From a virus (Duplodnaviria > Caudoviricetes): a stretch of 64,000 nucleotides of DNA. Below are positions 1 through 25,290 of this stretch, one piece after another (the first letter of the stretch is position 1; each line of letters begins with the position of its first letter). The stretch is from positions 128,001 through 192,000 of IMG/VR virus record IMGVR_UViG_3300027782_000030. One strand, written 5' to 3'. The notes beneath the pieces were generated by a model. It was not told the DNA's origin. It did not search any database and worked only from the letters and a program-made list of their open reading frames with translations. The translations under genes were made by a program, and so were the position numbers.

Positions 1-299
1 ACTACAATGTTAGTTATAATAGATACGACGATAATCATTATGAAGTATGTAATAGCAACGAAGTGATTGTTGCGGGTAATAATTATTTTAGCGGTTGGAA
101 CTGCAATGTAGGTGATGCTATTTTTATCAATCCAGTAGGCGAGGTCAGTTTAGCAAGTTGTGGTATGGGTGGTAATGTGGGTCATATATTAAAGGATATT
201 TCTCGTGTTGGACCTAAACAAATCATTTGCAAAAAAGAACATTGCCATTGTGGCACAGACATTATAATCCCTAAATTTATAAACAATGGCAATTCTTAA
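1..299 (+). CDS. 3' part of a probable radical SAM protein (SPASM/twitch-like Cys-rich C-terminus), truncated by the window edge
   Basis: The frame of ORF 63..299 is open back to position 3. It contains WNCNVG...SCG...CKKEHCHCGTD, a Cys pattern typical of radical SAM C-terminal domains. The CxxxCxxC motif is not in the window. Confidence 0.5.
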   Translation, partial: YNVSYNRYDDNHYEVCNSNEVIVAGNNYFSGWNCNVGDAIFINPVGEVSLASCGMGGNVGHILKDISRVGPKQIICKKEHCHCGTDIIIPKFINNGNS

Positions 300-1515
300 T
301 AGAGACTCTTATCCTAAGATTCATACTAGTTTTGAAAAAGTAGGTACACCGCATTGGACAGCACCTGTTAACAAGACTGTTACAGAAGGAAATGTAACTT
401 TTCAAGTATATTACTTTGATGAAAATAAAGATTATTGGTTCATTGACATATATAACGGAAATGCATTTGAATGTTACCCTATAGAAACTATTCTTCCTGA
501 AGAAATATTAAGAAAAGTTTACAATAAGGAAGTAATATTATTAATTTCAAATACTCATGAAACTTATCACAGTTGTATTACTGGAATATATAGAGATTTG
601 GTAGTTAGGGCTAATATCCCTATAGAGCAGATAATATTTCTAACCGAGTCTGCTGATATAATAGAAGAAGTAGACATTGTAAGACAAAAATATAATTTAG
701 AACGAATCAATGTTGAATGGATAAGAACATTTGAGTTCAACGCAAAAAGTCAATTTTTACATATGTTTACTAATCCACCATTAACTCTTGAAAATAAACA
801 TTATGATAAAAAGTTTCTAAGTTTTAATCGCCATATGATGACTCACGGTAGATTGCATAGAGGCGGTTTAATAGCATTATTATGTGCTATGAACTTATTA
901 GACAATGGATTCGTTAGTGCTGGAATGTTTTATGAATATCCAACTTGGAATGACATTTTAAATGAGTTAAAACGTTACCATAATGACAGTGAAGAATTCA
1001 TTCAGTTATTAATGGCTAACGAACAACGAATTTTAAATATTGGCGACTTGACTGTAGATGTAGATAGCACTGTTTTAAAAGAGCGTGATAATGCTTATCT
1101 TTTACCTTCTATAGCTAAATTTTATGAAGATTCTTATTTTAGCGTAGTTACTGAAACAAATTGTTTTGCTAAAGGAATAATGCAGGGTGATATAACTCCA
1201 CCTGGTAGATTACTAAGTGAAAAAACATTTAAAACGATTGCTATTAAACATCCCTTCATTATAGTAGCTAGAGCTAAAACACTTGAATTGCTTAGAGAAA
1301 TAGGATATAGAACATTTAGTCCATGGATAGACGAAAGTTATGACAATGAATTAAATGAATCAGCTAGAATGTTAATGATAGTTAAAGAAATAAAAAGATT
1401 GTGTGAATTATCTTCTGACCAGTTAGTTGAGTTTTTAAACAATACTAGAGAGATTTGCGAATACAATCATCAAGTATTATTGAGTAAAAATAAATGGACA
1501 ACACAACTAAATTAA
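286..1515 (+). CDS. Glycosyltransferase-like protein (GT10/GT-B-like), paralog 1
   Basis: Motifs KKFLSFNR...HR, SYFSVVTET, SEKTFK..HPF and GYRTF..IDESYD are shared with four other domains in the window. Confidence 0.55.
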   Translation: MAILNRDSYPKIHTSFEKVGTPHWTAPVNKTVTEGNVTFQVYYFDENKDYWFIDIYNGNAFECYPIETILPEEILRKVYNKEVILLISNTHETYHSCITGIYRDLVVRANIPIEQIIFLTESADIIEEVDIVRQKYNLERINVEWIRTFEFNAKSQFLHMFTNPPLTLENKHYDKKFLSFNRHMMTHGRLHRGGLIALLCAMNLLDNGFVSAGMFYEYPTWNDILNELKRYHNDSEEFIQLLMANEQRILNIGDLTVDVDSTVLKERDNAYLLPSIAKFYEDSYFSVVTETNCFAKGIMQGDITPPGRLLSEKTFKTIAIKHPFIIVARAKTLELLREIGYRTFSPWIDESYDNELNESARMLMIVKEIKRLCELSSDQLVEFLNNTREICEYNHQVLLSKNKWTTQLN

Positions 1516-1625
1516 AATGCGATTTAATATATTTTGTAGGTGACAGTGTAACATTTGCGATGGATCAACTTTATATAGCAGATAAAATTTTAGAACATAT
1601 TGAAAAATTTAATATATTAAATTAA
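1494..1625 (+). pseudogene. 43-aa internally deleted SGNH-like remnant
   Basis: Translated by hand: MDNTTKLKCDLIYFVGDSVTFAMDQLYIADKILEHIEKFNILN. A GDS block is joined directly to a C-terminal-like helix. Confidence 0.45.
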
Positions 1626-1969
1626 CCATACTTCTTCATTTCTCTTACTGGGTCATTTAGTTTTTCTGCCATACTATTTTTTAAATCGTACCGTTTATGC
1701 ATTACATCTCTGACATGCAATGCTCTACGACCCACTTCTGCTAAATCGTATAAATGTTCAACACGGAATTTTTTAAAATCATCTTCTAAATCCCACACTT
1801 CCGCGTGTACTTCATATAATTGATCAAGTTCGTCCTTTATTAGTTCAAAATCAATGTCATGTAATTGTTCAGTGTAGAAGTCTAGTTCTTCTTTATTATT
1901 GCCTAATTTTGCAAATTTTAATTTGGCAATGCAATAACGGTCTACTAATTCTATTATTGGGAATTTCAT
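1622..1969 (-). CDS. Hypothetical helical protein
   Basis: 115-aa ORF, last gene of the minus-strand operon, overlapping the upstream gene by 4 nt. Confidence 0.7.
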   Translation of the reverse strand: MKFPIIELVDRYCIAKLKFAKLGNNKEELDFYTEQLHDIDFELIKDELDQLYEVHAEVWDLEDDFKKFRVEHLYDLAEVGRRALHVRDVMHKRYDLKNSMAEKLNDPVREMKKYG

Positions 1970-2670
1970 AAGTTATCTTTAATTAAATTTAAAATTTCAA
2001 TCTGCTGCTGAGGTGAGGTATGATAATGGGCATCACCGAAGATATCAACATAATTCTGTTTATATGTGTTACCGGTAATACATTCATACCATGGTACTTC
2101 AGTAATTGGCATATTAAGTAAATCAATGACTAATATAGCAGGTATATTACTTACATATAATTTATGTAATACTGCTTGCATACACCATAAATCTATTTTT
2201 CTTTTCATCATGGGTGAATACATATGCATGAACCATTGTTTTATAGCATCGTCCTTTTCTTTGGGAGCATGAGCTTTAGGGAATTTTGTTATAATTGGCT
2301 CATGTAATAACGACATAAGATTCTCACTAATTAAGGACGGCGAAGTATTATTATTTAATATCCTAGGATAATATGATATATCGAATAAGCTAGCACACCT
2401 ATTTACATATCTATTATCATTGTCTTCACCTGAAGTAGTGCTTAATTCTATGCGGTCAATGACCGTAGTCCCAAATAATATTAGATCAGGTTTATCTAAT
2501 ATGGCCTGTTCAATTTGCAGTGCGATTCCACCGTTACTCATTCCCCCGCGAGCATATGTAACAAGGTCATATCCTAATTCCTTAGCAAACAATTCTGAAA
2601 AATGAGTATTTTTATAATTATTATAATCTGGTGTCATCCAACTATCACCGCATACTATTAATTTTGGCAT
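1966..2670 (-). CDS. SGNH/GDSL-like hydrolase or acyltransferase
   Basis: N-terminal LIVCGDSW, RGGMSN block and a late DAHYH motif. Confidence 0.6.
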   Translation of the reverse strand: MPKLIVCGDSWMTPDYNNYKNTHFSELFAKELGYDLVTYARGGMSNGGIALQIEQAILDKPDLILFGTTVIDRIELSTTSGEDNDNRYVNRCASLFDISYYPRILNNNTSPSLISENLMSLLHEPIITKFPKAHAPKEKDDAIKQWFMHMYSPMMKRKIDLWCMQAVLHKLYVSNIPAILVIDLLNMPITEVPWYECITGNTYKQNYVDIFGDAHYHTSPQQQIEILNLIKDNL

Positions 2671-3866
2671 ATTTCTACCTTAGGAAAATATTTTAAGAAA
2701 ATGTCTTGCTCAATATTACGCACAGTTTTAATTCTTTTACTAATCTCTGTAAAAAAGTTCCAAGCCAATGGCATAAACACAAGCCGATCATTTGAACTAA
2801 ACTCTTTGATAGCATCAGGTCCTTTTATAAGAATATTTGTTCCTGGCGTATACAAATTATGCTTTAATGGGTTGTCATCTATAATCAAATCTAACTTCAT
2901 ATCTAAGAAATTCAATAGTGTATTACCTTTTGCGGCTGCACCGTAGCCAATTATTTTATAGCCGTTAAACTTATAGGACTCTATAGTACGCTTTAACTCG
3001 TCCATATTACTTTTGACATTTTTTTCCCATATAGTATACGTTTTTATGTTTAGTAAGGCTTTCTCTGTTTTGATTTTGTCATCGATGGTCGATGAATCAT
3101 CCTTAGTACTTAATATGAATAAGTAACTGTTACCGTGTACAGGAGTTTTGATAGCGTCAATCAAGTATAGCCCTGCTCTTTTGGCTAACTCATACAGACT
3201 GTTGATATTAAAGAAATTAATATGCTCATGGTATATAGTATCAAACTCATTATTCAGAACCATATCTGCTTGACTAGTCTGAATGAATAATAGTGTATGG
3301 TCACGCATCAACTTTTTACAAGTTTGTAAGAATTCTAGTGGGTTAGGATTATGTGCAAAAACATTTTGGGCAGTTATAGCATCAAATTCATATTTAATTT
3401 TATCTACCACATCAGGACCAAAAAAGTCACATATGACATTATGTTTTGCTGAACTAGTAGGATATATATTTTCTGCTGGATCTACACCAAACGTGTTAAA
3501 CCCTCTAGACTTGAAAGAATCTAATTGAGTTCCGTCATTGCATCCAATATCTAATACATTGGATGTTTGTTTGTTTAGTTTTTCAATGACATAATTAGCA
3601 AACCATTCGCTATAATCTTTTAGGGTTTTGCTAGTACCGCTTACATACAAGTAGTTTTTATAGATTGTTTTTGGATCAACCGTATGAGTTAATTGAAGAT
3701 GATAGCAGATTCTGCATAAATTTACTGCTAGAGGATACCGATCTTCAATCCCATCTTTAAGATTGAGATAACTGTTAGCCAATGGTTGAATACCTAGGTC
3801 AAGCGCCAATGACAAATTTTTATTACCACACGCTAAACACGCATGATTGTATTCTATTTTACTCAT
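2658..3866 (-). CDS. NDP-hexose C-methyltransferase (TylCIII/NovU-like; Zn-binding N-terminus, class I SAM core, C-terminal domain)
   Basis: CLACG...CRIC Zn motif, YLYVSGTS, VLDIGCNDG, NVFAH, IYHEH and GYGAAAKGNTLLN. Confidence 0.85.
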   Translation of the reverse strand: MSKIEYNHACLACGNKNLSLALDLGIQPLANSYLNLKDGIEDRYPLAVNLCRICYHLQLTHTVDPKTIYKNYLYVSGTSKTLKDYSEWFANYVIEKLNKQTSNVLDIGCNDGTQLDSFKSRGFNTFGVDPAENIYPTSSAKHNVICDFFGPDVVDKIKYEFDAITAQNVFAHNPNPLEFLQTCKKLMRDHTLLFIQTSQADMVLNNEFDTIYHEHINFFNINSLYELAKRAGLYLIDAIKTPVHGNSYLFILSTKDDSSTIDDKIKTEKALLNIKTYTIWEKNVKSNMDELKRTIESYKFNGYKIIGYGAAAKGNTLLNFLDMKLDLIIDDNPLKHNLYTPGTNILIKGPDAIKEFSSNDRLVFMPLAWNFFTEISKRIKTVRNIEQDIFLKYFPKVEICQN

Positions 3867-4764
3867 ATGGTATGAACTGGTTTCTATTGCTAAAGGTTGT
3901 CTGATCTATCTTAGATACAATATCATTGACAATTGAGTCAATAGTCTCTTTAAACTGAAAGTTATAAGTATGCTTAAATTTTTGAGTGTTCATAATAAAA
4001 TCATAAACGCCTGTTACGCTAGGTTGTATTTTTATATTTGAAGTAGTTAAACTACTAACCATTAGGCTAATGTTATCAACAGTGTCATAGAAGCTAGCCA
4101 AGTTGTATATTCCAACTTTTGGATTCTGTAGTACACTATTAACTGCAAGACCAATATCAGCGATACCCAATATTGGTCTTGTTATTTCTTTATTATTAAT
4201 AAAAATGGTACCCAACTCAATTGATTTTTTAGTCATTGAATTAATCATTAGGTCTTCCCGCATGTTTGGACTCCATCCATTCACTGTTCCAAATCTAAAT
4301 CCAATTATATTATACCCATCTTGAATAAACTTTAGTGCATGTGTATCAAGCGTGTATTTGGTTAGATCATAGTTGTTTATGGGTTTAAATAGCAAGTTAT
4401 TATCTTCGCTCGTTTCTTTGGCAGAGTTACCGTACACACTTCCGCTGCTTGCATAAATCAATGTTTGTTTTTTGTCAATCATTGATACCAAATTGACAAA
4501 GTTATTAACATTGTTGTTAAAACTTGAAGTAATATCGCCGTTACACATATTCACTGAACTATGACCGGCAAGTAGAATTATGGCATCAAACTTACCTAGG
4601 AATTCTTTGGAAAGAGTATTGTAATCCTGTGTAATACTAGTACCTAGATTTCTTTCAAACCAACAAAGGTCAACACTCTGCATTTGGTATTGATATTGAA
4701 GGTCATGTATTAGTCTAGATCCTATATATCCATTGCCTCCCAAAATTAAGACTGTTTTAGCCAT
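3859..4764 (-). CDS. NAD-dependent epimerase/dehydratase (extended SDR)
   Basis: GGNGYIGS Rossmann motif, YASSGSVYG, YDLTK (YxxxK) and RFGTVNG. Confidence 0.9.
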   Translation of the reverse strand: MAKTVLILGGNGYIGSRLIHDLQYQYQMQSVDLCWFERNLGTSITQDYNTLSKEFLGKFDAIILLAGHSSVNMCNGDITSSFNNNVNNFVNLVSMIDKKQTLIYASSGSVYGNSAKETSEDNNLLFKPINNYDLTKYTLDTHALKFIQDGYNIIGFRFGTVNGWSPNMREDLMINSMTKKSIELGTIFINNKEITRPILGIADIGLAVNSVLQNPKVGIYNLASFYDTVDNISLMVSSLTTSNIKIQPSVTGVYDFIMNTQKFKHTYNFQFKETIDSIVNDIVSKIDQTTFSNRNQFIPYE

Positions 4765-4771
4765 TGTGATT

Positions 4772-4803
4772 TATTTATATGGTAATATAGTCTACAATAA
4801 ATA
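4772..4803. promoter_or_regulatory. Divergent T4-type late promoter motifs
   Basis: TATAAATA on the minus strand (4772-4779) and ATAAATA on the plus strand (4797-4803), each a few nt before a start codon. Confidence 0.6.
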
Positions 4804-4808
4804 ATGTA

Positions 4809-5951
4809 ATGATTGTGAATAATCTTAAATTCTATTATATAGATACTGTATCTGCCTCAGATAATGAAGTCCCTTCAATTAGGTACGCCAGTGCTTATCA
4901 ATCGTTGCCGATATATTCTAACCATAATTATTATTACATAGAATTTAAACGGTCTCTTTCTAGTTTATCTGAATGTTTGATTAAGGACAATGTATTACAT
5001 CAGCTAGTACACGGTGACTTATACCTTGCGCTATGTAATAGTCATGAAGCCTTTCATTCTGTAGTTGATGAAGTATATGAACACGCTGTAATAGAATTAG
5101 CCATTCCTGAACATAAGATTATATTAATAAGCGAATCAGCGGATATAGTCACTGAAGTTAACGATGTGGCATTACAATTGGGTAAACATCCTATTAAAAC
5201 TCTTTGGGCTAGAATTTTTGAATGGGCAGGTAATAGATATATTAATTCCGTTTTAAACGGTAAAACTAATCCCAAATTAATAGACAAATCTTTTGGTAAA
5301 GCTTTTTTAAATTTTAATAGGAGATGGAGAACACACAGACCTGCTTTAGTAGCATTATTATTTGCTAATAATTTATTAGATAGGGGTTATGTAAGTTTGG
5401 CTCCGGTAGAGGGAACGAATTGGGAACTGATTTGGTGGTCATTAGTATCGTATCATAATGAAGAGATATCTACATTGTTAACAATGTACAAAGACGATAT
5501 ATGCAACATACCTCCTTTATTTTTAGACGCCGAAAATATGGAAGTCAACCGAGTTGAACATAGTGAGTCAGTAGCATATTTGTATAATGACAGTTATTTT
5601 AGCATAGTGACTGAAACAAATTATTATGCCAATCAACCGGGACGATTCTTCAGTGAAAAAGTTTTTAAACCAGTTGTTATGGAACATCCATTTATAATAG
5701 TATCTAGGCCACATTCACTAGCAAAATTTAAAGAATTGGGCTATAAATCATTTAGTCCATATATTGATGAATCATACGATGAAGTAGAAGATGACTCGGA
5801 AAGATTACTAGCGATAGTAAACGAAATAAAAAGATTGTCTCTTTTATCCCCTACAGAATTGTCAGAATTTTTAATCAATGTAAAGCCTATATGCGATTAT
5901 AATTTTAAAATTTTGTTAACTAAAAAAAATTTTATTACCCATTTAAATTAA
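4809..5951 (+). CDS. Glycosyltransferase-like protein, paralog 2
   Basis: KAFLNFNRRWRTHR, SYFSIVTET, SEKVFKP..HPF, GYKSF..IDESYD. Confidence 0.55.
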   Translation: MIVNNLKFYYIDTVSASDNEVPSIRYASAYQSLPIYSNHNYYYIEFKRSLSSLSECLIKDNVLHQLVHGDLYLALCNSHEAFHSVVDEVYEHAVIELAIPEHKIILISESADIVTEVNDVALQLGKHPIKTLWARIFEWAGNRYINSVLNGKTNPKLIDKSFGKAFLNFNRRWRTHRPALVALLFANNLLDRGYVSLAPVEGTNWELIWWSLVSYHNEEISTLLTMYKDDICNIPPLFLDAENMEVNRVEHSESVAYLYNDSYFSIVTETNYYANQPGRFFSEKVFKPVVMEHPFIIVSRPHSLAKFKELGYKSFSPYIDESYDEVEDDSERLLAIVNEIKRLSLLSPTELSEFLINVKPICDYNFKILLTKKNFITHLN

Positions 5952-5953
5952 CT

Positions 5954-6763
5954 ATGACAGATTTATCTAACATTGATTTTGGTAAATATAAACGCTTCTT
6001 TGCGTTTGGATGCAGTTTTACTTCATATCATTGGCCTACTTGGGCTGATGTATTAGCATCTGAAATGCCTAATGCTGAATTTTACAATTTTGGACATTGC
6101 GGTGGTGGTAATTCAATGATATCTAATCGCATTGCTGAAGCAAATTGTAGATATAAATTTACCGATACTGATTTAGTTGTGCCGATGTGGACTACATTTT
6201 GTAGAGAAGATAGGTATAGAACTGGTCAATGGATGAGTACTGGTAATATGTTTAGCCAAAATGAATTTGATGAAGAATTTGTGAGAAAATATTGCGACCC
6301 AATTGGATATTTGTTAAGAGATTTAGCAATAATTACTGTTACAAGTACCTATCTTAAATCCTTGCCTTCTGATTCATTCATGTTAAATGGAGTACCTTAT
6401 ACTTATCAAATGGATATTGAAACCGCACCATATCCAAAATTAAAAGAAATTTTGGAATTATATAAAGACACTATTAGCTTAACTCCACCTGCATTAGTTG
6501 ATTTAGAATTAGGAGGTGAATTTAAACACGGTCATGAATACTCAAGGATGCATAATGGTGATTGGTACTTAGACTATCATCCAAACACATTGCATTATAA
6601 TGGATACCTTAAAAAAATAGGTCTACCGTTAACATCTAAATCTTCAATGTATACAGAACATTCAATGACATTGTTAAAATCAACTAAAACAGAAGCACAA
6701 TTGATCATCGCCTTTAATAAAATGGTTGACGATAGAAATACAAAATTAAAAAATCTTTTTTGA
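5954..6763 (+). CDS. SGNH-like protein (GCS variant)
   Basis: FFAFGCSFT, NFGHCGGGN and DYHP resemble SGNH blocks I, II and V. Confidence 0.5.
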   Translation: MTDLSNIDFGKYKRFFAFGCSFTSYHWPTWADVLASEMPNAEFYNFGHCGGGNSMISNRIAEANCRYKFTDTDLVVPMWTTFCREDRYRTGQWMSTGNMFSQNEFDEEFVRKYCDPIGYLLRDLAIITVTSTYLKSLPSDSFMLNGVPYTYQMDIETAPYPKLKEILELYKDTISLTPPALVDLELGGEFKHGHEYSRMHNGDWYLDYHPNTLHYNGYLKKIGLPLTSKSSMYTEHSMTLLKSTKTEAQLIIAFNKMVDDRNTKLKNLF

Positions 6764-6777
6764 ACTTAGGAATATTA

Positions 6778-9132: not shown

Positions 9133-9135
9133 TAA

Positions 9136-11385: not shown

Positions 11386-11953
11386 GTTTGAAACGGTTAT
11401 AAAAGAATATTATAACAGCCCATATGCGGTTACAACTGATTGTTGTACCCACGCTATTGAACTATGTATTAGGTTATTAAAGCCAACTGAGGTATCATGT
11501 CCAAAACACACCTACCTAAGTGTTCCAATGACATTTGAAAAATTAAATCTAGATTGGAGATTTAAAAATTTTAAATGGAATGATTATTATTATATAACTA
11601 ATAATATTATTGATGCGGCAGTATATTGGAAGCCCGATGGATATATCCCTAATACATATATGTGCTTGTCATTTCAATTTAAAAAGCATTTAAATGTGGG
11701 TAGAGGTGGCATGATATTAACCGACGATTATGAATCTTATAAAAAATTAAAAAAGATGAGTTATGATGGTAGGCTTCCCGATATTGCATGGGCTGAACAA
11801 GACGTAGACACATTGGGTTATCATTATTATATGACACCTGAAACTGCTGAGTTGGGTTTAGATAGATTTCACGAAGTAAAGGACATTGAACCTAGACAAT
11901 GGTCTTGGAAAGACTATCCCGACTTAACAACAATGAGTGTATTCAAATGCTAA
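11369..11953 (+). CDS. Compact DegT/DnrJ/EryC1/StrS-family PLP aminotransferase
   Basis: CTHAIEL, IIDAA, SFQFKKHL (PLP Lys), GRGGMILTDD and GYHYYM. Only 194 aa. Confidence 0.75.
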   Translation: MNPILEFETVIKEYYNSPYAVTTDCCTHAIELCIRLLKPTEVSCPKHTYLSVPMTFEKLNLDWRFKNFKWNDYYYITNNIIDAAVYWKPDGYIPNTYMCLSFQFKKHLNVGRGGMILTDDYESYKKLKKMSYDGRLPDIAWAEQDVDTLGYHYYMTPETAELGLDRFHEVKDIEPRQWSWKDYPDLTTMSVFKC

Positions 11954-14627: not shown

Positions 14628-14648
14628 ATACTTATAAGGAGCACATTT

Positions 14649-14747
14649 ATGTTTATATTTAAATGGATTAAGAATATTATCCGAGAATACAAATACCGTA
14701 AAAGAATTAAAGAATTACGCAAACGGGATCCTTTCATATACAAATGA
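14649..14747 (+). CDS. 32-aa basic peptide, missed by the ORF track
   Basis: MFIFKWIKNIIREYKYRKRIKELRKRDPFIYK. AGGAG SD and a TAAATA motif lie upstream, and the stop overlaps the next ATG. Confidence 0.7.
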   Translation: MFIFKWIKNIIREYKYRKRIKELRKRDPFIYK

Positions 14748-16225: not shown

Positions 16226-16236
16226 GTAACTACATC

Positions 16237-19200
16237 ATGAGAGATGTATTTTATTACGGTAAAAAACCCAACGTTCACCCAAAAGAAAAATTTGCGACTT
16301 CAATAGAAGATGCCAGGAGTCAATGTACCACTGAACATTTTTGGATAATCAATGAATACTGTGATTATCGCAATCTAGATTGGGACTTTGATTTTGAATT
16401 CTTACCCGATGAAGATGTATGGGCAGAAGACCATAACAATGTATGGCCCAGCCAACATCAAAAAGACAGTGGCACTTGGCTATGTCCAAAGAAAAACAGT
16501 GATATAATTATCTATCGTGCTGATGTTGACCCTGTTATTCGTAAGAATATAAAGAATGACAATTGGGTAATATTATATGAAATTGATGAAATTAACTTTG
16601 ATTTTAGTTGGCATCCTGATCCAACTGATCCTTCCTATACTTATGTATGGGGTAACCAATGGCACTCTGGTAAGATTATGCCTACGGTTAAATATTCCGT
16701 ACTTGGTTCGTTAGAAGTAAAATATATTGAAAATAATATTGCGATATTAGCACAATTGCCTGAAAACTTTGATATTTTTGAAGAAGTTGAGAATTTTGAT
16801 TTTAGTTGGCATCCTAATCCAACTAGTCCTCCTTACATATATGTTTGGGGTAATCAATGGAATATCCCTCAGGACAAAATATCTATTCAATATAAAGTTG
16901 ATGGTGCGACCGAACATAATTATATGGCCGAACGTGCGATTCGTAAACCATGTACAGGTAATTGGATAATACCTGATAATGTTGATACAATTGGGTTTGA
17001 CTTTAGTTGGGAACCTAGCCCAGCGGATCAACCTTATATTTACCAATTTGGCACTCAGTGGCAAAAGACAGGTGGTCCACAATATTTAACACCAGGCGTA
17101 CATAAAAATAGTGACATTAAGTATATTGATTTGCAAAAAGTAAAAATATTGCCTAATAAAGATAACTTTATTATCTTAGACAATATTATTGTAGATGATT
17201 TTGATTATAGTTGGCATTCTGATGAAACAGAAGAACCATACATATACGTATTTGGTAATAATTTATATGCGGCTGAAATTATGCCAACTATCCAGTACGT
17301 ACCTAAAAACGCAGTTAGATTAACATCAGGTAAACCAATTGAACAAATAAAATATGTCAATGACTTAGTTGCTAAATTAGGAGAGAATAGAAATAATTGG
17401 GTTATTCATCAGCCAATAGATGAAATTAAATTTGATTTTAGTTGGGTGCCTAATCCTAAAGATCCCCCTTACATATATGTTTGGGGTAACAAATATATTT
17501 CAAACATATATAAACCAACGGTTGAATATATAGTTGAAGGTGCAACTGAAATAAAATACATGGATGACAGTGTTGCTGTATTACCCGAGCTTGATCGATG
17601 GTATATACCAAATAATATTGATGATACTGGTTTTGATTACACATGGAGACCTGATCCATTAGAACCTGTATTAATTTGGCAATTTGGCACTCAGTGGCAG
17701 AAGACAGGTGGACCTAGATATACCATGCCTAGCGCTATTGAAATCAAATATATTGACAGTCAAAAAGTAAAAGCACTGCCTAACAAAAATTGGACTATAC
17801 CTAAAAATATTGATGTATCTGAATTTGATTTTAGTTGGCACCCAGATGACACTTCACCTTCTTACATATATAGATTTCCTACACAGTGGGCAATGAGTGG
17901 TGGTCCAATTTACACTGTAGTTGGAGCAACAGAAGTAAAGTATATAGATATCTTTAGGGCTAAAGCGCTACCTAATACAGACAATTGGGAATTCGATTCT
18001 AACAATATTGATTCGTCTATCTTTGATTTTAGTTGGCACCCATATGCTGAAGATGAGCCTTTCATATATCAATTTGGTACTCAATGGCAAAAGACAGGTG
18101 GTCCTAGATATTTAACTCCAGGAGTTCATAAAAATAGTCCTGTAAAATATATTGATACACGAATTATAAAAGCAAAAAGATTGCCGAACAAAAATAATTT
18201 TGTTATTTTAGATGACAATGTTATATCTGATTTTGATTATAGTTGGCATCATGATGATACTGAAGAACTTTTTATATATGTATTTGGTAACAATTTATAT
18301 TCTGCTGAAATTATGCCAACTATCCAGTACGTACCTAAAAACGCAGTTAGATTAACATCAGGTAAACCAATTGAACAAATAAAATATGTTAATGACTTAG
18401 TTGCCAAGTTAGGAGAAAATAGAAATAATTGGGTAATATATCAACCAATAGATGAATCTAAATTTGATTTTAGCTGGGTCCCCAATCCCAAAGACCCAGC
18501 TTACATATACTGTTGGGGTAACAAATTTATTTCCAATGTATATAAACCAACCATTGAATATATAGTTGAAGGTGCAACTGAAATCAAATACATGGATGAC
18601 AATGTTGTAGTAGTACCTGAAAGCGATCGGTGGTATATACCAAGTAATATTGATGATACTGGCTTTGACTATACATGGAGACCTAATCCATTAGAACCTG
18701 ATTTAATTTGGCAGTTTGGTACTCAATGGCAAAAAACCGGCGGCCCAAGATATATTATGCCCGGTGCTATTGAAGTCAAATATATTGACAGTCAAAAAGT
18801 AAAAGCACTTTCTAATAAAAATTGGACTATACCTGAAAATATAGATGTGTCTGAATTTGATTTTAGTTGGCATCCAGATGATACAAGTCCACCGTATATT
18901 TATAGATTCCCAACTCAATGGGCAATAAGCGGCGGACCTAATTATATAGTTGAAGGTGCTACTGAAATAAAATATATTGATAAGCTTAAGGCTAAAGCAC
19001 TTCCTTGTAAAGATTATTGGGATTTTAATTCTGCTATAGTTGATGAAAATAGTTTTGATTTTAGTTGGCATCCATATGCAGAAGACGAGCCTTTTATATA
19101 TCAATTTGGAACACAATGGCAGAAAACAGGTGGTCCTAGATATTTAACTCCAGGTGTTCATAAAAACAGTCCCATAAAATATATCGATACACGAATTATT

Positions 19201-22200
19201 AAATCAAAAAGATTGCCAAACAAAAATAATTTTATTATCATTGATAATAACATAATTGACAGTTTTGATTGGTCATGGCACCCTGATGAAACAGAAGAGC
19301 CATTTGTTTATATATTTGGTAATAATCAGTACTCGGCTGAGATAATGCCAACTATAAAATATGTTGTAGAAGGTGCTGCTGAAATAAAATATGTTAACGA
19401 TATAATTGCTACTTTAGGTGAAAACAAAACCTATTGGGAAATGCCTGAAGGTGTGAATATTATCAACTTTGATTTTAGTTGGGTACCTAACCCTAAAGAC
19501 CCTGCTTACATATATGAATTTGGTACTCAATGGAATGATAGAGGAGGACCAAAATATGTTCCTCCTAATAAAGGGCTTAGATTAGCATCAGGTAAACTTA
19601 TCGGTCAATATAAGTATGTCAGTGATCAAATTGCTACAGTAGGGGAAAATAAAACAAATTGGATCATACCTAATAATATTGACATTACAGGTTTTGATTT
19701 TAGTTGGGTCCCACATCCCGATGATCCGCCATATGTATATGAATTTGGTACCCAATGGCAGCAGACAGGAGGGCCCAAGTATATAGTTGAGAATGCTACT
19801 GAAGTTAAATATGTAGATATATTTAAAGTTAGAATGTTACCCAATAGTGATAATTGGGAAGTACCTGATAATATAGATAGCACTAAATTTGATTTTAGCT
19901 GGCATCCAAATTCAACTGAAGAACCCTACACATATAAATTTGGAACTCAGTGGCAAAAGACTGGAGGTCCTAGTTATTTAACACCTGGTATTCATAAAAA
20001 CAGTCCGATAAAATATATTGATAATCAAGTACTTAGTAGTATTAGATTACCCAACAAAGACAATTTTACTATATTAGATAATATTATTGTTGCTGATTTT
20101 GATTACAGTTGGCACCCTGACGAAACTGAAGAGCCGTATGTGTACGTATTTGGTAATAATTATTATCCAGCTGAGATAATGCCAACTATTCAATATGTAC
20201 CCGAAAATGTAGTCAGAGCAGCATCAGGGATACCAATTGAGCCAATTAAATATGTTAATAATGTGGTTGCAACATTAGGACAAAATAAAACTAATTGGAT
20301 AGTACATCAGCCGATAGATGAAAGTAAGTTTGATTTCAGTTGGGTACCTAATCCCAAAGATCCTCCTTATATCTATGTTTGGGGTAACAAGTATATTTCA
20401 AACATATATAAACCTACATTGGAATATGTTCCTTCTGAAATTCCTAGACTAGCAACAGGTAAACCAATTGGTCAAATTAAGTATATGGATGATGACGTTG
20501 AAGTTCTTCCCGAATGGGATAATTGGATTATACCTGAAGATATAGATAAAAATAGTTTTGATTTTACATGGAGACCTGATCCACGTGAGCCTGATTTTAT
20601 ATATCAATTTGGTACACAACATCAAAAAACAGGTGGTCCTCAGTATATTACCTTAGGTATCCCTAGACTAGCAACAGGAAAACCAATTGGCGGTCAAGTT
20701 AAATATGTTGATGGTATAAAGGCTAAAAAGCTACCTAATAAAACTAATTGGACTAATCCTAGCAAAGCGGATGTTAGTACATTTGATTTCAGTTGGCACC
20801 CGGACGATACGTCACCTCCTTACATATATCAATTTGGTACATTATTAGATAGAGAAGATGGACCTAGGTATATGACTCCAAAGACTAATGGAGTGATTGT
20901 TTATTTGGAAAAAGTTGAAAAAGAAATTGAGGAAGTTATAGAAGAATTGGTACGAGGTGATTTCCCTAAATATTATATTTCTACTACCCTTGAAGATTTG
21001 GTAAAAGAACACCCAAATGAAATGTTTTGGGCATTAAATCCTAATTTAGATTATAGTGATTTTGATTTTGATTGGAGACCTAATATTGACCGATCACAGT
21101 ATGAATCAGAATATGTTCATGTGTTTGGATCTAGTGAAAGTGAAAAAACACAGACATATCTAGTTAATAGTATAATGTGGGAGAAAGGTTTTAGAGAATT
21201 AAATTGGGTCGTTGACAAAAAACTTGATGATGTAACATTATTTAAAATGTTCAAAAAATCCGATATGTTCTTTGTAGATAGAAGTAACCTAGAATCTCAC
21301 GCAAGATTTGAACAACTTAAAGTTAAATTTCCTAATATACAAAAGACAAGATACCTAAATAGTTGGGTTGATACTATTAATCGTTGTATAAATCGTGCAA
21401 GTAGTAATTTATGTTGGATATTAAACAGTGAATTAGATTATAGTAATTTTGATTTTGATTATTATCCTAATCCTTGGCAAATGAAAATGGTCCATGTATT
21501 TGGAACACAATGGAGTCATTGGGGGTCAACATTCATGGTCAACCGAGAATCATTTGCTGAAGATACTAAATGGATTAAAATTATAGAGCATTTAAGTAAT
21601 CTTAACTTTGTAAAAGATAGAATTGCTATAGCTGATAACAATGTATATGACATATATGTTGTAGACCACGGTAATAAAGAAACAGCCACTGTGGTTGATC
21701 AATTGACTAATAAAGCGTGTGGTAAATCAGTTAATACTATTAAATATACCGAAAATTATTTACTTACATTTAGAAATCTATTAAGACAATTACCTGAAAA
21801 GAAAGAACATTATATTTGGTTATGTAGTAGCATATGTGACTATAGTAATTTTGACTTTAGTTATATATGCGATCCTTTTGCCCGTGAGCAATTGCATGTA
21901 TTTCCTAGTGATACTCAAAAATTAGGTGATACCTTTTTAGTTAATATTAATAAGTTTCGTGAATTAATTAATAATATGACTTTATTAAATGAATATAATA
22001 AAATCAATTATAATCAACATCAAAAAGTTAAAAGATTAGAACCGCCCACTATTATTACTAATTACGATTCTCATGTATTAAGTGTAATGGAAGACTTTGA
22101 TTTCCCATATGCTGTGTTTTTATCTGAAGATAATAAAGATTTAAAAGTCAATGACGAAGAGCCGATTAGTTTATGGAGCAGTGACACTAAAAACATTGTT

Positions 22201-22986
22201 GTTACTAGCACAGGTGGAACAAGAATAGTAGTTCCCAAAGAGGCTAAAAATTATGTAGATACGCAATTGTATGATTACCCCTACATTAAAAAGGCTAGTA
22301 GACTTGTGCCTAGTAATGTTTTAGACATTGTGTTTTTAAGTAATGGTGAGCCCAATGCAGATGAAAACTATGAAAACTTGTTAAAACTAACTCGTGGGTT
22401 ACCAAATAAAGTTACTAGAATAGAAGGCATAAATGGTAGAGTAGCCGCTTATCATAAAACAGCAGAGGCTAGTAATACTAACTGGTATTTTGTTGTTTGG
22501 GGTAAACTATTTGTTAATCCAAAGTTTGATTGGTCGTGGCAACCTGATAGATTACAAATACCTAAGAACTATATATTTCATGCAAAAAATCCATTGAATG
22601 GATTAATATATGGCCATCAAGCAGTTGTTGCGTATAATAAAAAATTAGCATTATCTACTAAAGGTAATCAATTAGACTTTACTATGGAAAGTCCACATCA
22701 GGTAGTACCTATATTATCAGGGACCGCTAATTATAATAGTGATGCATGGACTACATGGAGAACTGCATTTAGAGAGTGTATTAAACTTAGATATGATAAT
22801 ACTGAAGAAAGCAAAAATAGATTAAAAATTTGGTTAACTAAAGCCGATGGAAATTTTGCAGACTTTAGTATTCAAGGCGCTAACGATGCTATAGAGTATT
22901 TTGATAGTGTGGATGGTGAGTATTCTAAACTCAAACTAAGCTACGAATGGGCTTGGCTGAGAGAAAAGTTCCAAAAATTTGACTAA
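16237..22986 (+). CDS. 2249-aa repeat protein with many FDFSW.P repeats and a C-terminal glycosyltransferase-A-like region
   Basis: Units of about 70 aa (W..P..ID...FDFSW.P....PYIY.FG.QW..TGGP.Y) organised in a 344-aa super-repeat. The C-terminus has DIVFLSNGEPNADENY...WRTAFRECIKL. Confidence 0.7.
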   Translation: MRDVFYYGKKPNVHPKEKFATSIEDARSQCTTEHFWIINEYCDYRNLDWDFDFEFLPDEDVWAEDHNNVWPSQHQKDSGTWLCPKKNSDIIIYRADVDPVIRKNIKNDNWVILYEIDEINFDFSWHPDPTDPSYTYVWGNQWHSGKIMPTVKYSVLGSLEVKYIENNIAILAQLPENFDIFEEVENFDFSWHPNPTSPPYIYVWGNQWNIPQDKISIQYKVDGATEHNYMAERAIRKPCTGNWIIPDNVDTIGFDFSWEPSPADQPYIYQFGTQWQKTGGPQYLTPGVHKNSDIKYIDLQKVKILPNKDNFIILDNIIVDDFDYSWHSDETEEPYIYVFGNNLYAAEIMPTIQYVPKNAVRLTSGKPIEQIKYVNDLVAKLGENRNNWVIHQPIDEIKFDFSWVPNPKDPPYIYVWGNKYISNIYKPTVEYIVEGATEIKYMDDSVAVLPELDRWYIPNNIDDTGFDYTWRPDPLEPVLIWQFGTQWQKTGGPRYTMPSAIEIKYIDSQKVKALPNKNWTIPKNIDVSEFDFSWHPDDTSPSYIYRFPTQWAMSGGPIYTVVGATEVKYIDIFRAKALPNTDNWEFDSNNIDSSIFDFSWHPYAEDEPFIYQFGTQWQKTGGPRYLTPGVHKNSPVKYIDTRIIKAKRLPNKNNFVILDDNVISDFDYSWHHDDTEELFIYVFGNNLYSAEIMPTIQYVPKNAVRLTSGKPIEQIKYVNDLVAKLGENRNNWVIYQPIDESKFDFSWVPNPKDPAYIYCWGNKFISNVYKPTIEYIVEGATEIKYMDDNVVVVPESDRWYIPSNIDDTGFDYTWRPNPLEPDLIWQFGTQWQKTGGPRYIMPGAIEVKYIDSQKVKALSNKNWTIPENIDVSEFDFSWHPDDTSPPYIYRFPTQWAISGGPNYIVEGATEIKYIDKLKAKALPCKDYWDFNSAIVDENSFDFSWHPYAEDEPFIYQFGTQWQKTGGPRYLTPGVHKNSPIKYIDTRIIKSKRLPNKNNFIIIDNNIIDSFDWSWHPDETEEPFVYIFGNNQYSAEIMPTIKYVVEGAAEIKYVNDIIATLGENKTYWEMPEGVNIINFDFSWVPNPKDPAYIYEFGTQWNDRGGPKYVPPNKGLRLASGKLIGQYKYVSDQIATVGENKTNWIIPNNIDITGFDFSWVPHPDDPPYVYEFGTQWQQTGGPKYIVENATEVKYVDIFKVRMLPNSDNWEVPDNIDSTKFDFSWHPNSTEEPYTYKFGTQWQKTGGPSYLTPGIHKNSPIKYIDNQVLSSIRLPNKDNFTILDNIIVADFDYSWHPDETEEPYVYVFGNNYYPAEIMPTIQYVPENVVRAASGIPIEPIKYVNNVVATLGQNKTNWIVHQPIDESKFDFSWVPNPKDPPYIYVWGNKYISNIYKPTLEYVPSEIPRLATGKPIGQIKYMDDDVEVLPEWDNWIIPEDIDKNSFDFTWRPDPREPDFIYQFGTQHQKTGGPQYITLGIPRLATGKPIGGQVKYVDGIKAKKLPNKTNWTNPSKADVSTFDFSWHPDDTSPPYIYQFGTLLDREDGPRYMTPKTNGVIVYLEKVEKEIEEVIEELVRGDFPKYYISTTLEDLVKEHPNEMFWALNPNLDYSDFDFDWRPNIDRSQYESEYVHVFGSSESEKTQTYLVNSIMWEKGFRELNWVVDKKLDDVTLFKMFKKSDMFFVDRSNLESHARFEQLKVKFPNIQKTRYLNSWVDTINRCINRASSNLCWILNSELDYSNFDFDYYPNPWQMKMVHVFGTQWSHWGSTFMVNRESFAEDTKWIKIIEHLSNLNFVKDRIAIADNNVYDIYVVDHGNKETATVVDQLTNKACGKSVNTIKYTENYLLTFRNLLRQLPEKKEHYIWLCSSICDYSNFDFSYICDPFAREQLHVFPSDTQKLGDTFLVNINKFRELINNMTLLNEYNKINYNQHQKVKRLEPPTIITNYDSHVLSVMEDFDFPYAVFLSEDNKDLKVNDEEPISLWSSDTKNIVVTSTGGTRIVVPKEAKNYVDTQLYDYPYIKKASRLVPSNVLDIVFLSNGEPNADENYENLLKLTRGLPNKVTRIEGINGRVAAYHKTAEASNTNWYFVVWGKLFVNPKFDWSWQPDRLQIPKNYIFHAKNPLNGLIYGHQAVVAYNKKLALSTKGNQLDFTMESPHQVVPILSGTANYNSDAWTTWRTAFRECIKLRYDNTEESKNRLKIWLTKADGNFADFSIQGANDAIEYFDSVDGEYSKLKLSYEWAWLREKFQKFD
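16990..20900 (+). repeat. Intragenic tandem repeats with a 1032-nt super-period (boundaries approximate)
   Basis: 17272-17357 is identical to 18304-18389 (86 nt, offset 1032). The flanks differ mainly at synonymous positions. Confidence 0.85.
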
Positions 22987-23007
22987 ATATATAGAAGGTG
23001 ATATACT
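22979..23007 (+). promoter_or_regulatory. sigma70-type promoter containing a TAAATA motif
   Basis: TTGACT-17 nt-TATACT, with TAAATA at 22984-22989. Confidence 0.65.
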
Positions 23008-23037
23008 GTAGTCATCGGTAACACAACGGAGGTTGAT

Positions 23038-23292
23038 ATGAAACGAGTTCTTGGTCTTGTCGTAGCGTTAGGTCTTGGTGCAAGTGCTACTGGTTGCGCC
23101 AGTCATCAGGTTGCCCCCGCAATTGTAGGGGCAGTAGTTGGAGTAGCGGTTGCAGATGCGGCTTACCGTCGTCCTGTAGTGGTTCAGGGTCCTGTTGTTA
23201 TTCAGCAACGTCAGTATCCTACAAATTATAATCGTCAGCCGGTTTATGTGTGTGACTACTATACTATCCCTAACCGTTGTTCTTGGCAATAA
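23038..23292 (+). CDS. Small predicted lipoprotein
   Basis: Signal peptide ending in a lipobox-like ATGC, with a GGAGG SD. Confidence 0.65.
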   Translation: MKRVLGLVVALGLGASATGCASHQVAPAIVGAVVGVAVADAAYRRPVVVQGPVVIQQRQYPTNYNRQPVYVCDYYTIPNRCSWQ

Positions 23293-23306
23293 TAGGAGAT
23301 CGTAAA

Positions 23307-23627
23307 ATGAAAACAAAAATTCTAGCTGCCGTGCTAGCCATGGCTCCATTAAGTGGCATGGCCCAACACCATCAAGGGTTCAGACATTTTGACCATCATC
23401 AACACTACAGAGGTGGATTGGGATGGGTAGCACCTGCTGTAATCGGTGGTGCTGTAGTATATGGACTAACCCGCCCTGCACCAGTAATCGTTCAACAACC
23501 GCCGGTTTATATTCAACAACCTATTATAGTAGACTCATCACAGGTTGTAATCATTGATGGAGTATCTTACATTAAACAGGCCATGATTATTAATGGAGTA
23601 ACACAAGAGGTATTGGTACGCCAATAA
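23307..23627 (+). CDS. Small secreted or membrane protein, His- and Pro-rich
   Basis: ATG at 23307 after AGGAG. Signal peptide MKTKILAAVLAMAP, and a PVIVQQPPVYI motif resembling the upstream gene. Confidence 0.6.
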   Translation: MKTKILAAVLAMAPLSGMAQHHQGFRHFDHHQHYRGGLGWVAPAVIGGAVVYGLTRPAPVIVQQPPVYIQQPIIVDSSQVVIIDGVSYIKQAMIINGVTQEVLVRQ

Positions 23628-23633
23628 TAAACA

Positions 23634-23783
23634 ATGTTTAAATTTAAATTATGGGTTAGGATTAATCCCTATCAAACTGCTCATACTGTAGTTTGGGCCA
23701 GCAACGCACTGGAGGCCAAACAATTAGGTGAGACTCAGTATGGTGTAGGCAATGTGCTTAACTATACGCAAATAGATGAATAA
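23634..23783 (+). CDS. 49-aa hypothetical protein, missed by the ORF track
   Basis: MFKFKLWVRINPYQTAHTVVWASNALEAKQLGETQYGVGNVLNYTQIDE fills the gap exactly. Confidence 0.55.
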   Translation: MFKFKLWVRINPYQTAHTVVWASNALEAKQLGETQYGVGNVLNYTQIDE

Positions 23784-23789
23784 CCTATA

Positions 23790-24941
23790 ATGAATAATTT
23801 TATAGTTTATAACCCATCATCTTTGGATGGGACAGTATACAATATATTTTTTAATATTTTTGGTAGATATACAGATATCGTAGAAGATGTTAAACTGTTT
23901 AGTGGTATTTCAGTCTTAACATTAAGAGAAGATTTATTGTTAACAAAAAATCCACTAATGTTTAATTATTATGAAATTTACATGTACAGAAAATCTAAAG
24001 GGTTACCTACAAAAATTATCATTGATTGGTCATTAGAGGGTCAATGTCATAATTCAAGTTTATCAACTTTATTCAAGGAAAACGAACTTAATATTGATAA
24101 AGATATATTATTTGTACATAATGATTCTTCTAATAGAATTTGGGTTCCGTTTAATATTGGACAACAGTTAACTATTGATTACCATGCATTAGATGCATAT
24201 AAAAGGTGTATTATTACCTCTAGCAATTTGACTGACAGAACCTTAGTAAAAGACAGAAAAAATGGATTAAATTTATTAATAGGTAAATTAAAAACAAAAC
24301 ATTCTAGATTTTTGGCAGCATATTATTTTTATAAATATGATTTACTTGATAGTGCTGTATTAGGTTTGCATGTACTACCAGAAGATATTGTCACAAGGAT
24401 GAAACTACATCCTGCATATTATGATATGAACTTTTATAATAAAATTGTACCATTATTAGGACCAGCGGATTCAGTTTCTAAACTACACGATACGAATGAA
24501 GGGTGTACAGCAGAAGATGGCGGGTGGCCATTTGATCCAAACATATTTAAAAATTCTAGTATAAGCTATGTTTGTGAAACCTATGATATTGACAAAGGAA
24601 TTTTTCCATACTTAGTGACAGAAAAATTTTATAGGTCTATTATTAATAAACATCCGTTTGTAGTGCAAGCCGGTTCAGGTCAATTAAACACTGTTAAATC
24701 TTTGGGGTTTGAAACCTTTTCATCTATCATTGATGAAAGTTATAATGATTATGATGTTCTTGATTATTCACATGTTGAAAAAACTGTATTAGCCGCAAAG
24801 GATTTTTTATCAAAACTATCTAATAATGCTGATAAAATACAAGAAATTGTAGACTATAATTATAATCGTTGGCTATCAAGAAGTAAGGATGAATATGATA
24901 AGACTACTGATTTTTTTATCAGATTTATAAATAATCAGTAA
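23790..24941 (+). CDS. Glycosyltransferase-like protein, divergent paralog 5
   Basis: SYVCET, VTEKFY..HPF and LGFETF..IDESYN. Confidence 0.5.
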   Translation: MNNFIVYNPSSLDGTVYNIFFNIFGRYTDIVEDVKLFSGISVLTLREDLLLTKNPLMFNYYEIYMYRKSKGLPTKIIIDWSLEGQCHNSSLSTLFKENELNIDKDILFVHNDSSNRIWVPFNIGQQLTIDYHALDAYKRCIITSSNLTDRTLVKDRKNGLNLLIGKLKTKHSRFLAAYYFYKYDLLDSAVLGLHVLPEDIVTRMKLHPAYYDMNFYNKIVPLLGPADSVSKLHDTNEGCTAEDGGWPFDPNIFKNSSISYVCETYDIDKGIFPYLVTEKFYRSIINKHPFVVQAGSGQLNTVKSLGFETFSSIIDESYNDYDVLDYSHVEKTVLAAKDFLSKLSNNADKIQEIVDYNYNRWLSRSKDEYDKTTDFFIRFINNQ

Positions 24942-24949
24942 ATAAAAGT

Positions 24950-25260: not shown

Positions 25261-25261
25261 G

Positions 25262-25290
25262 TAATAGGCCCGCAAGGGCCTATTATTTTG
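25262..25290 (+). terminator. Rho-independent terminator of the tmRNA gene
   Basis: TAATAGGCCC-GCAA-GGGCCTATTA followed by a T-rich run. Confidence 0.85.

Follow-up and report, generated by a model that had tools for sequence, protein, structure and literature searches.

What would a bacteriophage build with a long run of genes for sugar-modifying enzymes, and on which molecule would the product end up? The question is raised by a 64,000-nucleotide (nt) stretch (bases 128001-192000, hereafter the window) of the 200,570-bp IMG/VR record IMGVR_UViG_3300027782_000030 (about 58% complete according to CheckV), which opens with glycosyltransferases (GTs), sugar-tailoring enzymes and a giant repeat protein. 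The source is a jumbo myophage that belongs to the wider T4 superfamily and is abundant in fresh water but uncultured, because the best identity of its TerL (49%) is to PA5oct-like Pseudomonas jumbo phages and Sinorhizobium phage Phosso, the window also codes for UvsX, SSB, helicases and a DnaB-type helicase, and about 15 studies have yielded freshwater metagenome runs, at least 16 in all, that contain the same DNA. A preliminary description of this DNA placed a glycan synthesis and decoration cluster at positions 1-24941. The sugar-tailoring block is real, but its true start lies about 10.2 kb upstream of the window; it is about 35 kb in total, and positions 1-24941 are its larger part. That the phage builds a heavily modified glycan, as first proposed, is well supported: the enzyme families point to it, a GT fold occurs in at least 12 domains, the operons are tight, and relatives show strict synteny. 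Because of these a pathway for such a glycan is the only economical reading, one that we consider very probably correct.

The preliminary description had named an epimerase, a nucleoside diphosphate (NDP)-sugar C-methyltransferase, a uridine diphosphate (UDP)-glucose dehydrogenase, a B12 radical S-adenosylmethionine (SAM) enzyme, a pyridoxal phosphate (PLP) aminotransferase, an amidinotransferase and a carbamoyltransferase, and each of these was confirmed by profiles, motifs or homology to solved proteins. Two operons diverge from a 44-nt spacer, one on the minus strand (4764 to 1622) and one on the plus strand (4809 to 14627), the genes of the latter overlapping or being at most 3 nt apart. 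The first gene of the minus-strand operon (3859-4764) encodes an extended short-chain dehydrogenase/reductase (SDR) of the epimerase/ketoreductase type, with a match to Pfam Epimerase (1e-19) and the GxxGxxG, S and YxxxK motifs. On the same strand, 2658-3866 encodes, by Pfam and PDB sequence homology, an NDP-4-keto-hexose 3-C-methyltransferase of the MtmC/TcaB9/KijD1 type. Its domains Methyltransf_13, _23 and _14 follow each other in the three-domain layout of that group (an N-terminal zinc-binding domain, a SAM methyltransferase domain and a C-terminal domain), and it aligns over its full length with MtmC (4rv9, E 7e-58, residues 9-376), TcaB9 (1e-38) and KijD1. In the plus-strand operon, profile matches and BLASTP identify the product of 6760-9132 as an NDP-sugar 6-dehydrogenase (residues 1-366) fused to a GT-B domain (paralogue 3 of the family described below, residues 445-781); in some relatives these are two separate genes. 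A supply of UDP-arabinose through the dehydrogenase was considered and rejected, as the known phage route begins at ribulose-5-phosphate. The B12-binding radical SAM enzyme (9136-11385, +) has PF02310 at residues 147-217 followed by PF04055 at 272-432, which is the layout of class B radical SAM enzymes; this core (residues 134-443) is flanked by conserved extensions to which no fold is assigned, and none of the 23 NCBIfam models of B12 radical SAM enzymes that match it scores above its own equivalog cut-off. It is the best-conserved protein of the block (54-91% identity in colinear loci, mostly 72-91%).

The gene at 11369-11953 (+) encodes a DegT/sugar aminotransferase-like PLP enzyme of only 194 amino acids (aa), which keeps the PLP lysine (LSFQFKKHL aligned to SFQALKHL of 4zwv), lacks the C-terminal domain and matches profile positions to about 260 of 360, short of the full fold-type I architecture (about 360 aa). 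A frameshifted or broken gene can be rejected, because the length and sequence are conserved in relatives (53-82% identity), and the length is also constant in ORF305 of cyanophage S-SCSM2R. The amidinotransferase (11899-12909, +, with a likely start at the ATG at 11947) is of the StrB1 type within the pentein fold family: it matches StrB1 (1bwd, E 9e-54, residues 20-333) as well as HsvA, AGAT and SxtG, and retains the catalytic cysteine of the GGxFHC motif (GGCFHCVT aligned to GGGFHCAT of StrB1). The last gene of the operon (12906-14627, +) fuses a cupin with an HxD...H...R motif, similar to 2-oxoglutarate (2OG)/Fe(II) oxygenases (residues 1-170), to GT-B paralogue 4 (residues 344-567). The earlier assignment of a 2OG oxygenase is putative: H91, D93, H149 and R159 of the domain (12906-13430) are invariant across 11 homologues, and Asp_Arg_Hydrox scores 17.8 bits (E 0.003) under a cut-off of 22.6; a profile search of the PDB returned only AtsK (E 0.5). 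Several relatives, and S-SCSM2R too, encode the cupin in a small gene of its own. After the operon comes an O-carbamoyltransferase of the NodU/CmcH/TobZ/NovN/GdmN family (14744-16225, +), identified by Pfam and PDB homology; it has the Kae1-like N domain and YrdC-like C domain that make up the family layout (Carbam_trans_N 9e-35, Carbam_trans_C 1.5e-46) and is related to NovN (1e-45), TobZ (3e-33) and GdmN.

Two further proteins had been called SGNH-type. The 234-aa product of 1966-2670 (-) has a GDS motif near its N-terminus, and the 269-aa product of 5954-6763 (+), a conserved core protein, has invariant G-C-S, GGGN and D-x-H motifs. The SGNH/GDSL signature consists of blocks I-V (GDS, G, GxND, DxxH), and the latter protein carries GCS instead of GDS and DxH, not DxxH. 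Searches of Pfam, PHROG and PDB sequences gave zero matches for either protein; the ESM Atlas neighbours of the 269-aa protein include DUF6071 (13-40% of members) and Lipase_GDSL (11%). We regard both as putative SGNH-like proteins, the larger one as a putative hydrolase or acyltransferase. Taken at the level of sequence families, the chemistry suggested by the block would include a uronic acid or other oxidised sugar, a 3-C-methyl branch, a guanidino group made from an amino sugar, a hydroxyl, an O-carbamoyl group and a radical methylation.

Such a list recalls antibiotic biosynthesis, and one could imagine that the phage makes a soluble metabolite resembling an aminoglycoside, which would be freed at lysis and serve as a pseudo-oligosaccharide antibiotic or signal. 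The best solved relatives of the enzymes are indeed antibiotic enzymes (StrB1, TobZ/NovN/GdmN and MtmC/TcaB9), and the sugar aminotransferases 4zwv and 4xau, the solved relatives of the short DegT protein, presumably belong to antibiotic pathways. The tailoring of streptomycin, tobramycin, gentamicin and mithramycin (StrB1, TobZ, GenK-type B12 radical SAM enzyme, MtmC) uses the same families, with significant homology. Cyanophage S-SCSM2R offers a partial parallel: its ORF301-310 include a short DegT protein of 195 aa (53% identical), an inosamine-type amidinotransferase (56%) and a small 2OG-type cupin, adjoining GTs and a radical SAM gene (PMC12801897). Its authors called three of these 'antibiotic synthesis genes', which suggests a product of this sort, and left their purpose unexplained (PMC12801897); the cyanophage is without the B12 radical SAM enzyme, the carbamoyltransferase, the dehydrogenase, the giant protein and the GT-B paralogue family. 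Yet the same families are common to ordinary surface-glycan pathways, and unlike the aminoglycoside and mithramycin clusters the present genes stand in a phage island with a dozen GT domains. We saw no exporter or resistance gene, and the 200-kb, about 58% complete record holds no cyclitol synthase of the DHQ_synthase type, inositol-phosphate synthase lying outside that search. Many GT domains and a giant repeat protein point instead to a polymer or a protein-linked glycan, and we consider a free metabolite highly improbable, the least likely of the products weighed here.

The GT domains are what would assemble the tailored sugars. The five GT-like domains of the preliminary description proved to be one paralogous family by BLASTP: paralogue 1 (286-1515, +, 409 aa, 40% identical to the product of 4809-5951), paralogue 2 (4809-5951, +, 380 aa), the C-terminal parts of the dehydrogenase and cupin fusions (paralogues 3 and 4), and paralogue 5 (residues 247-376 of the 383-aa product of 23790-24941, +). 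An AlphaFold model of paralogue 2 (33 sequences, pLDDT 91) represents the family, the other four members being tied to it by BLASTP only. All of the 50 best VIA matches of this model (Z 7.1-10.7) and all Foldseek matches (of the GT4, GT20 and SdgB types) have the GT-B fold. In paralogue 2, E283 and K284 of an SEK motif are invariant, and E138, R174 and R177 are invariant or nearly so. The family is very large: a search of 1.8 billion library proteins at E <= 0.001 gives 8,073 cluster representatives. Its nearest clusters in the ESM Atlas are almost all viral (94-100% of members), some being fusions with epimerases or methyltransferases. The GT-B paralogues have no match to Pfam, NCBIfam or PHROG profiles, and the same is true of both SGNH candidates, of the giant protein and of the upstream GT-A-like proteins; a GT-B family profile has zero matches among PDB sequences. 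According to the model the GT-B fold is settled, and the subfamily is not, because the top VIA matches lie within or near 1 Z of each other: T4 beta-glucosyltransferase (10.7), T4 alpha-glucosyltransferase (10.0) and the DNA arabinosyltransferase of phage HY126 (9.7) are tied with, among others, the alpha-1,3-fucosyltransferases FUT9, FUT11 and HpFucT (9.4-9.7). The nearest named cluster in the ESM Atlas is GT10 (score 0.78), a lead only, and the invariant SEK motif resembles what we take to be the TEK motif of GT10. The Glyco_transf_10 profile has no match in the record, and control genomes gave none either.

The two T4 enzymes and the HY126 enzyme modify DNA, which brings in the possibility that the GT-B proteins glycosylate a hydroxylated base, the other enzymes tailoring the sugar, as a shield against restriction. 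Besides these top structural matches, an entirely soluble set of enzymes would suit this role, as would late expression, since such group transfers occur late and before packaging (PMC13326640). The likeness is one of fold, however: the top matches are tied (<1 Z) with fucosyltransferases and other GT-B enzymes, many GT-B families tie, there is no sequence match to the T4 and HY126 enzymes, and the T4-Gluco-transf Pfam profile has no match in the record. No hydroxylated-base pathway was found in the record either. The only ThyA homologue (30746-31600, +, TTG start) is a canonical thymidylate synthase above the equivalog cut-off, in which the Cys of PCH and the Asn of PFNIASY, which specifies deoxyuridine monophosphate, are kept; because the enzyme is canonical, ordinary thymine in the DNA can be argued. 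No C5-cytosine methylase (DNA_methylase) or Tet_JBP match was found in the 200 kb, a weak argument in a record about 58% complete. At least 12 GT-fold domains and a conserved place behind fibre genes also fit DNA modification poorly, and we consider it quite improbable.

The giant repeat protein announced by the preliminary description is there (16237-22986, +, 2249 aa), and four tandem GT-A-like domains that had been missed follow its repeats. A repeat profile finds 21 strong copies of about 68 aa (consensus FDFSWxPxPxxPPYIYxFGTQW..GGPxY), four degenerate copies further on, and no copy elsewhere in the genome. Five units form a 344-aa super-repeat (residues about 302-1055), repeats 4-8 being the same as repeats 9-13. 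Homologues fall into 596 clusters (90% identity, E <= 0.001), and the C-terminal 830 aa are 58-94% identical in the 60 homologues checked by BLASTP (58-65% outside close relatives), whereas the homologues listed are between 1,300 and 3,330 aa long in total. The number of repeats would therefore be free and the C-terminus constrained, and the array would expand and contract quickly. In a model of the C-terminus (pLDDT 76), tandem alpha/beta domains match GT-A enzymes by Foldseek and VIA at model residues 254-381, 384-538 and 607-750; these include Mimivirus R699 and R655, heparosan and chondroitin polymerases, LH3, LARGE1 and PBCV-1 A64R, and nucleotidyltransferases of the same superfold match equally well. 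The last domain is homologous to a 316-aa protein whose gene lies ahead of the window and which has DGD as its DxD motif; at this position the four domains of the giant protein have NPN, NSE, SSI and WGK. The short repeat corresponds to the segment after the DxD position, and the array thus looks like an amplified fragment of a GT-A-like domain. The protein may act as a catalyst, a scaffold or an acceptor. We set aside the idea that it is a substrate, akin to ribosomally synthesised and post-translationally modified peptides, of the radical SAM enzymes encoded upstream, as those enzymes also accompany the GT-A module where no giant protein is seen (in RsoM2USA and one further locus).

The order of the core genes recurs in many viral contigs. 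In the 22 viral loci retrieved with the amidinotransferase, the core is colinear in 11, at 36-91% identity, in the order 5954-type protein, dehydrogenase (fused to a GT-B domain or followed by one), B12 radical SAM enzyme, short DegT protein, amidinotransferase, cupin/GT-B, carbamoyltransferase and giant protein; the remaining loci have the same genes reshuffled with radical SAM genes of the N-twitch type. In the colinear loci the module is always closed by a giant soluble protein. The complement of GT-B genes, on the other hand, varies even in comparison with the closest relative. Megablast of the 25-kb block and tblastn of the GT-B protein against a phage collection gave zero matches.

Where the product goes is a separate question, on which the setting of the block has a bearing. 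The island is preceded by a 2229-aa open reading frame (ORF) and by a gene whose product starts like a virion protein and contains a Peptidase_G2 autoproteolytic domain, a kind of domain known from tail fibres and spikes; the genes just ahead of the island are probably tail-fibre genes. A tight operon then runs from genome position 117,789 to window position 1515, across the window start, and encodes a 101-aa protein, two 265-aa GT-A-like proteins, a 109-aa protein, a 316-aa GT-A-like DxD protein (genome 119998-120948) and six radical SAM enzymes. The upstream GT-A-like proteins carry the DxD motif as DGD (the 316-aa protein) or DVD, and the 316-aa protein is at least 83% identical in all 120 listed 90%-identity clusters, on contigs of up to 335 kb, in contrast with the variable GT-B genes around it. 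The six tandem radical SAM genes (genome 120942-128299) include five members of NCBIfam NF033640, in which a twitch/SPASM-like cluster domain stands N-terminal to the radical SAM core; the sixth matches more weakly. The last of the six (+, genome 127322-128299), with a CxxxCxxC motif, starts 679 nt before the window and has its 3' end at 3-299. In total the 200-kb record has ten radical SAM genes, another NF033640 member lying at genome 32129-33259, and the literature notes as many as 12 such genes in T4-like genomes from the environment. Homologues of the upstream module occur in the same order in the cultured Ralstonia jumbo phage RsoM2USA (ORF347-354, MG752970, PMC8504454), which shares the two 265-aa GT-A-like proteins, the 316-aa DxD protein (40%) and a 468-aa N-twitch radical SAM protein (35%). 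There the module, whose ORFs are annotated as hypothetical, directly follows structural genes, the products of which were found in the virions (PMC8504454); RsoM2USA is without the amidino, carbamoyl, B12 and giant-protein core.

The predicted timing of expression is the second clue. T4-type late promoters consist of TATAAATA near position -10 of late genes and are recognised by gp55. The preliminary description saw TAAATA late-type motifs at 4772, 4797 and 14625. The first two lie in the divergent control region (4765-4808), where TATAAATA (4779-4772, -; TAAATA at 4777-4772) stands 7 nt ahead of the ATG at 4764 and TAAATA (4798-4803, +) stands 5 nt ahead of the ATG at 4809, and no Shine-Dalgarno site can fit between motif and ATG. 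The octamer TATAAATA is not enriched in the window (5 found, 14 expected). Yet across the genome 20 of 184 long ORFs have a TAAATA that ends 4-8 nt ahead of their start codon, when 1.8 are expected and 1000 shuffles gave 7 at most, and this short-spacer class includes the terminase gene, a virion protein gene and the first genes of both divergent operons. In a second class, the motif ends 16-28 nt before the start (26 ORFs, 4.6 expected) and a Shine-Dalgarno-like GGAG is present. The genes for ThyA, SSB, UvsX, the helicase and DnaB are without the motif. The spacing shared with the terminase gene supports a late-type signal at the 4772 and 4797 sites; the 14625 site fits neither class, overlapping a stop codon 113 nt ahead of the next ATG. 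Genes of the short-spacer class are, by their spacing, candidates for leaderless late mRNAs. Further examples of the short-spacer class in the window precede 35005 and 36571. A scan for sigma-70 promoters and terminators did no better than on shuffled sequence (121 versus 114 promoters, 12 versus 8.2 terminators).

Islands of this kind have already been described in pelagimyophages and cyanomyophages (Zaragoza-Solas et al. 2020, PMC7029224), under the names hyperplastic region and 'host recognition cluster', and modification of the host O-chain was proposed for them. As in those clusters, a large variable island lies in the structural region of an aquatic T4-type myophage, beside tail-fibre genes (probable ones here), and is rich in GTs, lipopolysaccharide-type sugar genes including a UDP-glucose dehydrogenase, and radical SAM cassettes. 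Their borders, VrlC and gp14, were not located here, and fibre-like genes upstream and a variable gene content were seen. The differences are that the present island belongs to a PA5oct/Phosso-like freshwater jumbo phage (TerL 49% identical) and that an eight-gene core ending in a giant multi-GT-A repeat protein is absent from the published description (PMC7029224). By analogy, the phage might remodel the host envelope, altering an O-antigen or capsule-type glycan on host lipid carriers and thereby blocking superinfection or re-adsorption to debris. The dehydrogenase, SDR, DegT protein and GTs are typical of O-antigen and capsule loci, the GT content varies between strains, and two small ORFs with a lipoprotein or signal-peptide character lie inside the block. 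Envelope remodelling is at odds with other features of the island, for which no initiating polyprenyl-phosphate transferase, flippase, polymerase or ABC exporter was found, and none of whose 29 enzyme-sized ORFs has a hydrophobic or membrane segment. Late-type promoters would also suit exclusion poorly, and the module always ends in a soluble protein of the 2249-aa type. We consider this use of the glycan unlikely.

Decoration of the virion is the destination that we tentatively favour, with a virion protein as acceptor (the adjacent fibres, probably, or else the giant repeat protein), and our confidence in it falls slightly short of even. It is favoured because of the late-type signals, a location after probable fibre genes both here and in RsoM2USA, the soluble enzymes and the lack of any lipid-carrier or export function, and because of the precedent of giant eukaryotic viruses and mycobacteriophages. 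The preference of the preliminary description for the virion over envelope or DNA keeps the support of the signals, position and soluble enzymes, but late timing would allow DNA glycosylation too. The fibril and capsid glycan clusters of Mimivirus and chlorovirus PBCV-1 likewise encode their own soluble sugar-tailoring enzymes and multi-domain GT-A proteins, and in its C-terminal part the giant protein resembles Mimivirus R699 and R655 and PBCV-1 A64R in fold, without sequence homology; those are other viruses of other hosts, and their virion glycans are proven, that of the present phage putative. In mycobacteriophages, GTs encoded by the phage decorate its capsid and tail proteins while these are in the cytoplasm (Freeman et al. 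2023, as cited in PMC12619734). As far as that secondary account goes, one or two GTs act there with host sugars, as opposed to about 30 genes with extensive tailoring here.

Virion decoration would involve a cytoplasmic assembly line of about 35 kb encoded by the phage, whose substrates, order of steps and acceptor we infer as follows. NDP-sugars would be drawn from the host, because no sugar nucleotidyltransferase is found in the 200-kb record (about 58% complete). The NDP-sugar dehydrogenase would oxidise them, and the SDR would epimerise or reduce them. They would then be methylated at C3 of a 4-keto sugar by the MtmC/TcaB9-type enzyme and probably at an unactivated carbon too by the B12 radical SAM enzyme. 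Transamination by the short DegT protein, amidination to a guanidino group by the StrB1-type enzyme, hydroxylation by the cupin and O-carbamoylation would follow. The units would be joined by the five phage-specific GT-Bs, the three small GT-A-like enzymes encoded upstream and the four GT-A-like domains of the giant protein. The product would be a strain-variable, cationic and chemically unusual sugar coat, made late in infection.

A number of points weigh against this proposal. To our knowledge, no member of this lineage has been reported to carry a glycan on its virion. Even a peripheral GT that has no membrane segment can act on lipid-linked intermediates. The assignments as SGNH protein and 2OG oxygenase stand at the level of motifs, and catalysis by the four GT-A-like domains of the giant protein, which are without DxD, may be doubtful. 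The TAAATA box resembles a host -10 element, and three phage DNA glycosyltransferases are among the top structural ties of the GT-B family, with a late timing that is compatible with DNA glycosylation (PMC13326640). Finally, the published view of such islands favours modification of the host O-chain (PMC7029224). One may also go beyond virion decoration and suppose that the eight-gene core makes a guanidino-bearing, carbamoylated, C-methylated sugar polymer, that the giant protein is both its scaffold and its carrier, and that the virion displays a cationic glycan fibre for first contact with the host, which we regard as a rather unlikely elaboration. The DxD-less GT-A-like domains and the 21 derived repeats would then hold or prime the growing glycan. 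We know of no polymer of guanidino-bearing, carbamoylated and C-methylated sugars from any virus.

What does the analysis add to the known islands, which take up a tenth or more of the genome in very abundant aquatic phages? First, it defines a compact, strictly syntenic core of dehydrogenase, B12 radical SAM enzyme, short DegT protein, StrB1-type amidinotransferase, cupin, carbamoyltransferase and giant protein, and our literature search found no description of a conserved core ending in a giant multi-GT-A repeat protein. Second, it defines a very large phage-specific GT-B family that has no Pfam model; the same search found no prior recognition that the five unassigned domains are one such family. 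Third, the short-spacer class of TAAATA motifs was not found described. If virions carry the product, no bacteriophage is known to make a more elaborate glycan of its own, and it would have a bearing on host recognition, on the arms races of phages and hosts in lakes, and on the enzymology of guanidino and carbamoyl sugars. Part of the question can be put to the test, since the upstream module is present in a cultured relative, RsoM2USA.

Some features of the block and its surroundings remain to be mentioned. The last gene of the minus-strand operon (1622-1969, -) encodes a 115-aa protein of no known family. After the plus-strand operon the genes follow in the order carbamoyltransferase, giant protein, two small ORFs and last GT-B gene. 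The two small ORFs overlap (23038-23292 and 23277-23627, +, 84 and 116 aa) and have a lipobox (LGASATGC) or a signal peptide, so that their products could be envelope-targeted accessory proteins for exclusion or lysis; the stretch that holds them, flanked by the giant gene on one side and by the last GT-B gene on the other, is locally richer in GC. Outside the window, at genome 62.7-65.9 kb, there is a second group of GT2-family genes just before baseplate and tail genes, and therefore the island is not the sole glycosyltransferase locus of the phage. Directly 3' of the cluster, at 24929-25288 (+), Rfam detects a permuted (two-piece) transfer-messenger RNA (tmRNA; tmRNA_permuted 111.5 bits, beta_tmRNA 98.2 bits) at a site where ARAGORN reports no tmRNA, and its betaproteobacterial type hints at the host.

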